A stretch of 64,000 bases of DNA from Escherichia coli (GTDB lineage Bacteria > Pseudomonadota > Gammaproteobacteria > Enterobacterales > Enterobacteriaceae), in NCBI RefSeq assembly GCF_022846255.1, contig NZ_AP025682.1. The stretch is one strand, 5' to 3'. Each line of letters opens with the position of its first letter. Within the stretch, counting starts at the first letter, position 1. This document shows, one piece after another, positions 57,972 to 59,313 of this stretch. The position numbers and the translations under genes were made by a program. The notes beneath the pieces are model-generated. The model did not search any database, was not told the origin of the DNA, and worked only from the letters and a program-made list of their open reading frames with translations.

Positions 57972-58443
57972 ATATCGATTACTCTCCCGAGAGTAAAACT
58001 ATCAAATCAATGAGTAACCGATACAGCCTCGCAAATTCTTTCAGATAATTAACCCGTCACTGCGGCACGTTCTCTCGTAAGGCGTGCCTGCAGTGTAATC
58101 CAGTATGTATCCGGCATAGTTGACGGTTTAATAGACTCAATTCCTCTCCCTGGTTACCTACAACGATATCTTGTATAACACCCCAGGAGATACGACGTTA
58201 CGATGAGATGCGATATGCTCCTCAGCGCCAATCAACGCCAGGACTGGGCCAGTCTTGAGATCAGACTCATTCCCGTAACTGATTTCAGGCGACATATATC
58301 AATGACGTTGGGGCAATAAAAGATAGCCGATGTAATACATCTATTCAAATTTGTGATACATGTCAAAAAATTGGTTGACCAAACTCGTTATTTATATAAG
58401 GGCACTTACGAAGTGCACTCTTTTTTAAAGCGAGGAAGTACCA

Positions 58444-58545
58444 ATGAAAGAGAATAAAGTACAGCAAATCAGTCATAAACTGATTAATATCGTTGTTTTT
58501 GTCGCAATTGTAGAATACGCCTATTTATTTCTCCATTTCTATTAA
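58444..58545 (+). CDS. ykgR: 33-aa small membrane protein (MKENKVQQISHKLINIVVFVAIVEYAYLFLHFY)
   Basis: Short ORF with GAGGAAG RBS 7 nt upstream and one hydrophobic helix; too short for the ORF track. Confidence 0.5.
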   Translation: MKENKVQQISHKLINIVVFVAIVEYAYLFLHFY

Positions 58546-58880
58546 TAACGGCAATAAACTGTTCACTTCAGTGATATTTAAAATATGCATCCTCTCCCTT
58601 TTTTGTAAGTAATTATTATATCCGTGGGAGAGGAATACACATTGTCAGGTAATCAATCATGCTGCAATAAATCATCGGCCAGTAAAGTGGAGATAGCCTC
58701 CATTCTCGAAAAATCCATACTCTCAGCGAAACCATCATCAATCACTCATCCAGGCGTTTATGGGAGCGTCGCCAATGGCTGCTAACAATGCCAGACTTCC
58801 CCGTTGCGGAAATTCCACATCCCACAAATAGTCACAGTGATTGGGTGTTGAAATGATCCGGATGAGTATGTATCTTTACG

Positions 58881-58898
58881 GTTATGTTATAACATAAC
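58881..58898. promoter_or_regulatory. Zur box (GTTATGTTATAACATAAC perfect palindrome)
   Basis: Perfect 18-bp palindrome matching the Zur operator core, 9 bp upstream of rpmE2. Confidence 0.7.
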
Positions 58899-58906
58899 AG
58901 GTAAAA

Positions 58907-59173
58907 ATGATGAAACCCAATATCCATCCTGAGTATCGTACTGTGGTGTTCCACGACACCAGCGTTGATGAGTACTTTAAAATCGGCTCGACTATCAAAA
59001 CAGACCGTGAGATTGAGCTGGATGGCGTAACGTATCCGTACGTAACAATTGATGTCTCTTCGAAATCGCACCCGTTCTATACAGGGAAGCTGAGAACAGT
59101 GGCATCAGAAGGAAATGTTGCACGGTTCACCCAACGTTTTGGTCGTTTTGTTAGCACGAAAAAGGGGGCATGA
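58907..59173 (+). CDS. rpmE2: 50S ribosomal protein L31 type B (zinc-independent paralogue)
   Basis: [19 protein letters not shown]... L31 family, lacking the CxxC zinc ribbon. Confidence 0.9.
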
Positions 59174-59313
59174 TGAAAGTCCTTAACTCTCTGCGTACCG
59201 CAAAAGAACGCCATCCAGACTGTCAGATTGTGAAGCGAAAAGGACGGCTGTATGTGATTTGTAAATCTAATCCACGTTTTAAGGCCGTTCAGGGTCGTAA
59301 GAAAAAACGTTGA
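59173..59313 (+). CDS. rpmJ2: 50S ribosomal protein L36 type B (zinc-independent paralogue)
   Basis: Hand-translated 46-aa [53 protein letters not shown] overlap with rpmE2 stop. Confidence 0.85.

Follow-up and report, generated by a model that had tools for sequence, protein, structure and literature searches.

Introduction

The stretch of Escherichia coli DNA analyzed here, a window of 64,000 nucleotides in total, contains a small locus in which a gene for a 33-residue protein, ykgR, lies next to the genes for two ribosomal protein paralogues, ykgM (rpmE2) and ykgO (rpmJ2), and to a palindromic operator. A preliminary description made from the sequence alone had grouped all these elements into a single zinc starvation module, preceded by a short hairpin and a U-run that would insulate it from the accessory island located upstream. 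The locus thus raises the question of whether ykgR, the operator and the ykgMO pair do form one regulatory unit, and what the hairpin in front of it is for. The response of ykgMO to Zur is a textbook case of ribosome remodelling under zinc starvation, and the corresponding promoter is used as a zinc and calprotectin biosensor. The Zur-regulated C- ribosomal protein paralogues are said to have been described as a class by Makarova in 2001 and by Panina in 2003. The reading we arrive at, to which we assign a probability of about 0.9, is that the region comprises two adjacent E. coli transcription units, ykgM-ykgO on one side and ykgR on the other, each with its own control.

Results and Discussion

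Genomic Setting of the Locus

The segment between positions 58300 and 59400 was matched in 5086 of the 5426 complete E. coli genomes, with identities of 95-100%, and in the RefSeq annotation it carries ykgR (small membrane protein), ykgM (type B L31) and ykgO (type B L36). It is therefore the annotated and published ykgR plus ykgM-ykgO locus of E. coli and already known as such. Identity with K-12 is about 96.5% over the aligned region. Upstream of ykgR and in the same orientation there is a gene for an NADH:flavin oxidoreductase (56829-57971). Downstream of ykgO the minus strand carries the split remains of ykgL, followed by ecpR. The alignment with K-12 runs from 57880 onward and also covers 50222-51648; K-12 lacks the DNA in between (51649-57879), and its ykgP pseudogene is a leftover 3' portion of the oxidoreductase gene. 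This upstream segment of 6.2 kb is truly variable, since it is complete in just 1786 of the 5426 genomes.

The four sequence features on which the initial proposal was built (the palindrome, the gene junction, the 33-aa open reading frame, and the hairpin with its U-tract) are all present in the DNA, so that what follows concerns their interpretation. An Rfam scan of positions 57800-60400, with E-values up to 1, gave no match; the spacer between ykgR and ykgM and the two leaders therefore contain no known RNA family.

The Zur Box and the ykgMO Promoter

The palindrome, GTTATGTTATAACATAAC (58881-58898, not assigned to a strand), is a perfect 18-bp inverted repeat made of two 9-nt halves. When 3 mismatches were allowed it was the sole match in the 64-kb window, with 0.03 expected. 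Its arrangement G-TTA-T-G-TT-A / T-AA-C-A-TAA-C meets every R and Y of RxxxYRxxR*YxxYRxxxY, the operator form obtained from a Zur-DNA crystal structure (Gilston et al., 2014; PMC4219657), and the palindrome extends to all the variable positions. A scan of the window with the bare R/Y skeleton returned 232 matches against 271 expected and is thus not discriminating by itself; the evidence has to come from the complete sequence and from its conservation among related loci. To evaluate the latter, 80 related loci from other genera (Enterobacterales, Vibrio and Pseudoalteromonas) were considered, and a match was defined as a sequence with up to 4 mismatches located no more than 80 nt upstream of ykgM. 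Such a match was found in all 80 loci, at 12-14 nt from the ykgM ATG in 72 of them, and in none of 1502 control segments taken from the same loci. The 18-mer is identical in K-12.

A sigma-70 promoter for ykgMO was identified by consensus scan on the plus strand at 58848-58876 (TTGAAA-17-TATCTT, with the -10 hexamer TATCTT at 58871-76), and the same hexamers were given by a genomic SELEX study (PMC3946193). The Zur box begins 4 nt downstream of the -10 hexamer and would therefore cover the expected transcription start. Under the name 'L31p' this operator has been reported as the most palindromic of the four Zur sites of E. coli and the one bound most tightly (apparent Kd, 0.025e-18 M^2), repression in vivo reaching 560-fold, and both Zur footprinting and EMSA of the ykgMO operator have been published (PMC4219657). 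In addition, a ykgM-lacZ fusion is silent in the wild type and becomes derepressed around 1000-fold by zur::kan or TPEN (PMC7297116). To regard the palindrome as a Zur box over a coupled pair of zinc-free L31/L36 genes is hence correct, and had already been published for the identical K-12 sequence; the ykgMO/Zur interpretation as a whole is fully established. The location upstream of rpmE2 stands as well, whereas the spacing of 9 bp does not: there are 8 nt between the box and the first in-frame ATG, at 58907, and 11 nt to the start codon at 58910.

The comparison with described systems leads to the same picture. With respect to the ykgM-ykgO unit of K-12 (PMC4219657), the operator, promoter hexamers, gene order, proteins and stop/start overlap are the same, and only strain-level substitutions outside the operator were observed. 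In other C- paralogue systems, such as ykgM of Y. pestis (PMC2706843) and ytiA of B. subtilis, the Zur box is also located between the -10 region and the start codon of the L31 paralogue, and the L36 paralogue usually follows immediately, as it does in E. coli. Two differences can be pointed out: the E. coli box is a perfect palindrome, to which most relatives show 1-2 mismatches, and E. coli, unlike its relatives, has an extra in-frame ATG in front of both the ykgM and the ykgO starts.

YkgM and YkgO: Proteins, Start Codons and Coupling

Both genes lie on the plus strand. ykgM (58910-59173) encodes a type B ribosomal protein L31 of 87 aa, according to RefSeq and to model NF002462 (122.9 bits, cut-off 86), and ykgO (59173-59313) a type B ribosomal protein L36 of 46 aa, assigned in the same way to NF002021 (91 bits, cut-off 70). 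YkgM has no Cys at the four ligand positions of RpmE (CxC...CxxC), nor anywhere else in its sequence. The situation in YkgO is less extreme, as judged from the four RpmJ ligands: C11 is replaced by H and H33 by F, and C14 and C27 are kept. Its zinc ribbon is thus broken, yet not erased, and calling YkgO zinc-free rests on the literature and not on sequence alone, because Cys is found at two ligand positions and His at a third. Both proteins have been modelled in an E. coli ribosome structure, PDB 6i7v, in which YkgM matches chain D7 and YkgO chain C5. L31B has also been reported to repress expression of rpmE (PMC9825181).

The extra ATGs mentioned above made the choice of start codons worth revisiting. 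Only one ATG precedes the conserved second codon (AAA/AGA) of ykgM in the 80 related loci, and it aligns with 58910. In the case of ykgO, most related loci have a homologue that begins with MKV or MQV 0-10 nt from the stop codon of ykgM, frequently in a TGATG or TAATG overlap. A GGGGG Shine-Dalgarno run leaves 4 nt to the annotated start at 59173 but only 1 nt to the ATG at 59170. The upstream ATGs at 58907 and 59170 were considered as possible true starts and rejected, since they are not conserved outside E. coli and the second one has just that 1 nt between it and the GGGGG run. From the alignment of related loci and the GGGGG spacing, the extra ATGs are a peculiarity of E. coli, and the starts that find support are the annotated ones.

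This bears on how the two genes are linked. The junction reads GGGGGCATGATGAAAG, with the ykgM stop codon TGA at 59171-59173 and the annotated ykgO ATG at 59173 overlapping it by one base (TGATG). The ATGA that had been taken as the coupling signal does exist (59170-59173), but it corresponds to the extra upstream ATG, and the conserved ykgO start gives TGATG instead. Translational coupling of YkgO to YkgM through a stop/start overlap is a reasonable inference whichever of the two starts is used.

The 3' End of the Operon

Two strong hairpins were found downstream of ykgO, at 59342-59360 and 59362-59400 (no strand assigned; z-score -6.8), the second one followed by UUUU. A 3' end detected in K-12 by Term-seq at 312325(+), on the opposite strand and corresponding to the convergent ykgL, falls at the same hairpin (PMC7815308). 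These hairpins are likely the terminator of the operon, acting bidirectionally and common to ykgMO and the convergent ykgL.

ykgR as a Separate Unit

The 33-aa open reading frame is located on the plus strand at 58444-58545 and preceded by the Shine-Dalgarno sequence GAGGAAG (58432-58438), which lies 5 nt upstream of the start, with its GAGG core 8 nt before the ATG, and is invariant in the Escherichia alignment. The product is identical in sequence to YkgR of K-12 (NF041474, PF28062), and RefSeq annotates it as a small membrane protein under NF041474; it scored 78.1 bits against this NCBIfam equivalog (cut-off 40). A search against Pfam-A models gave no match, while the precomputed annotation lists PF28062:YkgR. 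Residues 13-33 constitute its one hydrophobic segment (mean hydropathy +1.9) and the 12 N-terminal residues are polar (-1.6), as in a single-pass membrane protein. It has also been reported that YkgR is expressed, can be cross-linked to SRP and is a substrate of RseP (PMC7549839, PMC10470546).

The alternative is that ykgR, the Zur box and ykgMO are a single zinc starvation module, bounded upstream by an intrinsic terminator that insulates it from the island. In favor of this reading, ykgR lies beside ykgMO and in the same orientation not only in E. coli but also in E. albertii and in a further Escherichia lineage, L004. Several observations go against it. At 3 mismatches no second Zur-box-like sequence was found in the 64-kb window, including the vicinity of ykgR. 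Outside Escherichia, none of the 78 loci analyzed had a ykgR-like open reading frame within 3 kb of ykgM; within the genus, ykgR is found beside ykgM also in E. albertii and in one further lineage. An exhaustive phmmer search of 1.84 billion representative proteins yielded nine YkgR clusters, all of them Escherichia-like variants or truncations. The two most divergent matches were considered as distant relatives and discarded, one (L083) being an indel-ridden E. coli-like assembly and the other (L084) an Escherichia variant truncated by the end of its contig. Judging from these searches, ykgR appears to be restricted to Escherichia.

The transcript of ykgR also seems to end before ykgMO begins. 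A strong 3' end mapped by Term-seq in K-12 at 313047(-), equivalent to about 58639 here, was seen in two of three growth conditions (PMC7815308). It lies 5 nt past a stem-loop in the 3' untranslated region (58590-58639 up to the mRNA 3' end at around 58639, plus strand; 9-bp stem formed by 58590-58598 and 58626-58634, z-score -2.9), 94 nt past the ykgR stop codon and 209 nt upstream of the ykgM -35 hexamer, so that it precedes the ykgM promoter. Since this stem-loop has no U-tract, some read-through from ykgR toward ykgM is possible. The limits of conservation are similar: a block from around position 58328 to around 58640 is conserved across Escherichia, and past it the ykgR-ykgM spacer is much more divergent and includes an indel of roughly 91 bp.

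With no Zur box of its own, no presence next to ykgM beyond Escherichia, its own upstream block and its own 3' end, the inclusion of ykgR in the zinc module is not supported, and the gene should not be counted as one of its members. We consider the single insulated module highly improbable. In the two-unit reading, ykgR would be a separate unit with its own promoter region and 3' end, predicted to be outside zinc control.

A Candidate CRP-Dependent Promoter for ykgR

What could control ykgR was then looked for within its conserved upstream block. A CRP-like site, TGTGATACATGTCAAA, is located on the plus strand at 58352-58367, about 85 nt before the ykgR ATG, with one mismatch to TGTGA-N6-TCACA. 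Across four Escherichia lineages its half-sites do not vary, in contrast to the N6 spacer, which has other sequences in E. albertii, L004 and L084. Taken alone, the site is not above chance (3 occurrences in the window versus 1.9 expected). It is followed by a candidate core promoter read from the sequence (TTGGTT / TTGACC, then TATTTATATAAG; 58371-58400, plus strand), in a block that is nearly invariant across Escherichia. The consensus promoter scan reported nothing at 58371-58400, a miss that would fit an activator-dependent promoter, and the candidate arrangement, TGTGA-N6-TCAAA upstream of a weak -10 region, resembles class II CRP-dependent promoters such as galP1.

Repression of ykgMO by Zur and activation of ykgR by CRP were reportedly described by Hemm et al. 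(J Bacteriol, 2010). We infer that CRP would exert this activation at the predicted site at 58352-58367. The Term-seq conditions in which the ykgR 3' end was present are, by the order of the data sheet, apparently the two LB cultures, and M63-glucose is apparently the one without it. The lack of this 3' end in one of three conditions, apparently glucose minimal medium, is a further likeness to class II CRP promoters and would fit catabolite control. In other data sets, no coordinates near K-12 3132xx that could correspond to the ykgR transcription start were present in the Cappable-seq supplements, and ykgR was not mentioned in the Reg-Seq supplement.

The Hairpin and U-Run Preceding ykgR

The hairpin GCACTT-ACG-AAGTGC occupies positions 58402-58416 on the plus strand and is followed by an A and then by CTCTTTTTT (58418-58426). 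The module as originally delimited started at 58410, which falls inside this hairpin. The distance to it from the upstream stop codon is 430 nt, and with respect to ykgR it falls after the candidate -10 region and ahead of the Shine-Dalgarno sequence. In a simple terminator scan the element (58402-58426) scored 6 pairs, 3 G-C and 6 U, and its predicted folding energy is -6.2 kcal/mol, with a z-score of -2.7 when isolated and -1.0 in a wider context.

Its proposed role as an insulator is favored by two facts: no other terminator-like site occurs from the stop codon of the oxidoreductase gene (57971) to ykgR, and the segment upstream is the variable one described above. Against it, the hairpin is weak and occurs at a chance rate, there being one terminator-like site in 57800-59700 versus 1.3 in shuffled sequences. 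It is also embedded in the conserved promoter/leader block of ykgR, and it is still present in E. albertii and L004, where the nearest upstream genes are divergent and, for this reason, no co-oriented gene needs to be terminated. Finally, the K-12 Term-seq data show no 3' end at the hairpin (3132xx), although this is a weak point because K-12 lacks the upstream gene. An insulating function against the accessory island is therefore not borne out by the position of the element, by its conservation or by the mapped ends.

Two other explanations were weighed. The first is that the hairpin and U-run are functional in the ykgR leader, either as a 5' stem-loop against 5'-end-dependent decay combined with a U/A-rich translation enhancer, or as a promoter-proximal attenuator. 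The position of the predicted start points in this direction: adding 41.5 to the center of the CRP site (58359.5) gives 58401, and the TATATA and TATAAG hexamers give about 58404-58407, so that the candidate starts, 58401-58407, either abut the 5' arm of the hairpin or lie inside it. The same coincidence can be turned around, as transcription starting inside the stem would preclude formation of the hairpin in the mRNA. Conservation can also be argued both ways. In E. albertii one A-U pair has changed to G-C (-8.3 kcal/mol) and in L084 pairing is kept through G-U wobbles, that is, the hairpin is maintained by one compensatory change and by wobble changes; the stretch CTCTTTTTTA directly before the Shine-Dalgarno sequence is invariant in the Escherichia alignment; and the element is retained whatever lies upstream. 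On the other hand, the stem is disrupted and shortened in L004 (-4.5 kcal/mol), and the block in its entirety varies so little that the persistence of the hairpin is no specific signal. A function in the leader is thus possible, and we put it forward only tentatively.

The second explanation is that the element arose by chance in a promoter region rich in A and T, with no function of its own. This would agree with the frequency of such sites in the shuffled sequences, with the modest z-score in the wider context and with the limited stem, of 6 bp with 3 G-C pairs; it agrees less well with the fact that the isolated element folds better than its shuffled counterparts and with the pairing being partly maintained across lineages. 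We regard it as nearly an even bet. Considering these data together, the hairpin and U-run most likely belong to the promoter-proximal region or 5' leader of ykgR, rather than being an insulator; in more general terms, being part of the ykgR promoter/leader, or having no separate function, is more likely than insulation.

There is also a way in which termination and the location within the promoter could be reconciled, with the hairpin working as a promoter-embedded filter: transcripts reading through from the variable DNA upstream would include both stem arms and be terminated, while CRP-initiated ykgR transcripts, starting in the 5' arm, would be unable to fold the stem and would pass. We find this quite improbable. 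If it were true, it would place ykgR under pure CRP control whatever the gene cassette present upstream.

Concluding Remarks

In the two-unit reading proposed here, and following what has been published for the identical K-12 sequence, two Zn-loaded Zur dimers occupy the inverted repeat and block RNA polymerase when zinc is present. Under zinc starvation Zur leaves the operator and ykgM-ykgO is transcribed. As published, the cysteine-free L31B, together with L36B, in which two of the four ligand residues are lost, then replaces the zinc-binding L31 and L36 in ribosomes. As a discovery the region matters little; the gain lies in the corrections to how it is to be read, i.e. ykgR is placed outside the zinc module, the start codons and spacings of the ykgMO unit are amended, and the role of the upstream hairpin as an insulator is left unsupported.

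Two very stable hairpins (59342-59400, z-score -6.8) are located downstream of ykgO, the last gene of the Zur-controlled operon. Since transcripts of ykgL, which converges on the operon, have a mapped 3' end at the second hairpin in K-12, this second hairpin is probably a bidirectional terminator. On the minus strand, ykgL itself is split into two short ORFs (59383-59573); the annotation of the nearest genome marks it as a frameshifted gene, and in K-12 it is intact.

A further stem-loop, with a 9-bp stem and lacking a U-tract, is found 45-90 nt beyond the stop codon of ykgR (58590-58639), the gene for a 33-aa small membrane protein (58444-58545, plus strand). 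In a published Term-seq study of K-12, a 3' end was mapped at position 313047 (minus strand) in two of the three growth conditions, and when transferred to the window it lies 5 nt beyond this stem-loop; it may be produced by termination or by trimming. In E. albertii (L003) and another Escherichia lineage (L004), about 91 additional bases directly follow the ykgR stem-loop; this stretch is missing at 58634-58640 from E. coli, both in the window and in K-12, as can be seen in columns 343-433 of A1, the alignment of the region with K-12 and related Escherichia loci. Antisense transcription has also been reported in K-12 for the region corresponding to about 58850-59300 of the window (minus strand), namely the RNA ECS017 opposite the ykgM promoter and a Rho-termination region antisense to ykgM/ykgO (K-12 312466, plus strand).

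Upstream of ykgR, a candidate CRP-like site identified by sequence match, TGTGATACATGTCAAA (58352-58367), is present around 85 nt from the start codon, with invariant half-sites and a variable spacer among the four Escherichia lineages compared. Further upstream is a variable 6.2-kb segment (51649-57879) with genes for two aldo/keto reductases, two LysR regulators, a hydrolase and an oxidoreductase of the old-yellow-enzyme type. Of 5426 E. coli genomes, 1786 carry the whole segment. K-12 lacks it, and its ykgP pseudogene is what remains of the 3' end of the oxidoreductase gene. In E. albertii, L004 and a further Escherichia lineage (L084) the DNA preceding ykgR is different again.

With respect to the operon's coding sequences, ATGATGAAA opens both ykgM (58907-58912) and ykgO (59170-59175) in E. 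coli, and in other genera the second ATG of each pair is conserved but the first is not. YkgO (59173-59313) retains cysteine at two of the four L36 zinc-ligand positions and has histidine at a third, whereas YkgM has lost all four cysteines.
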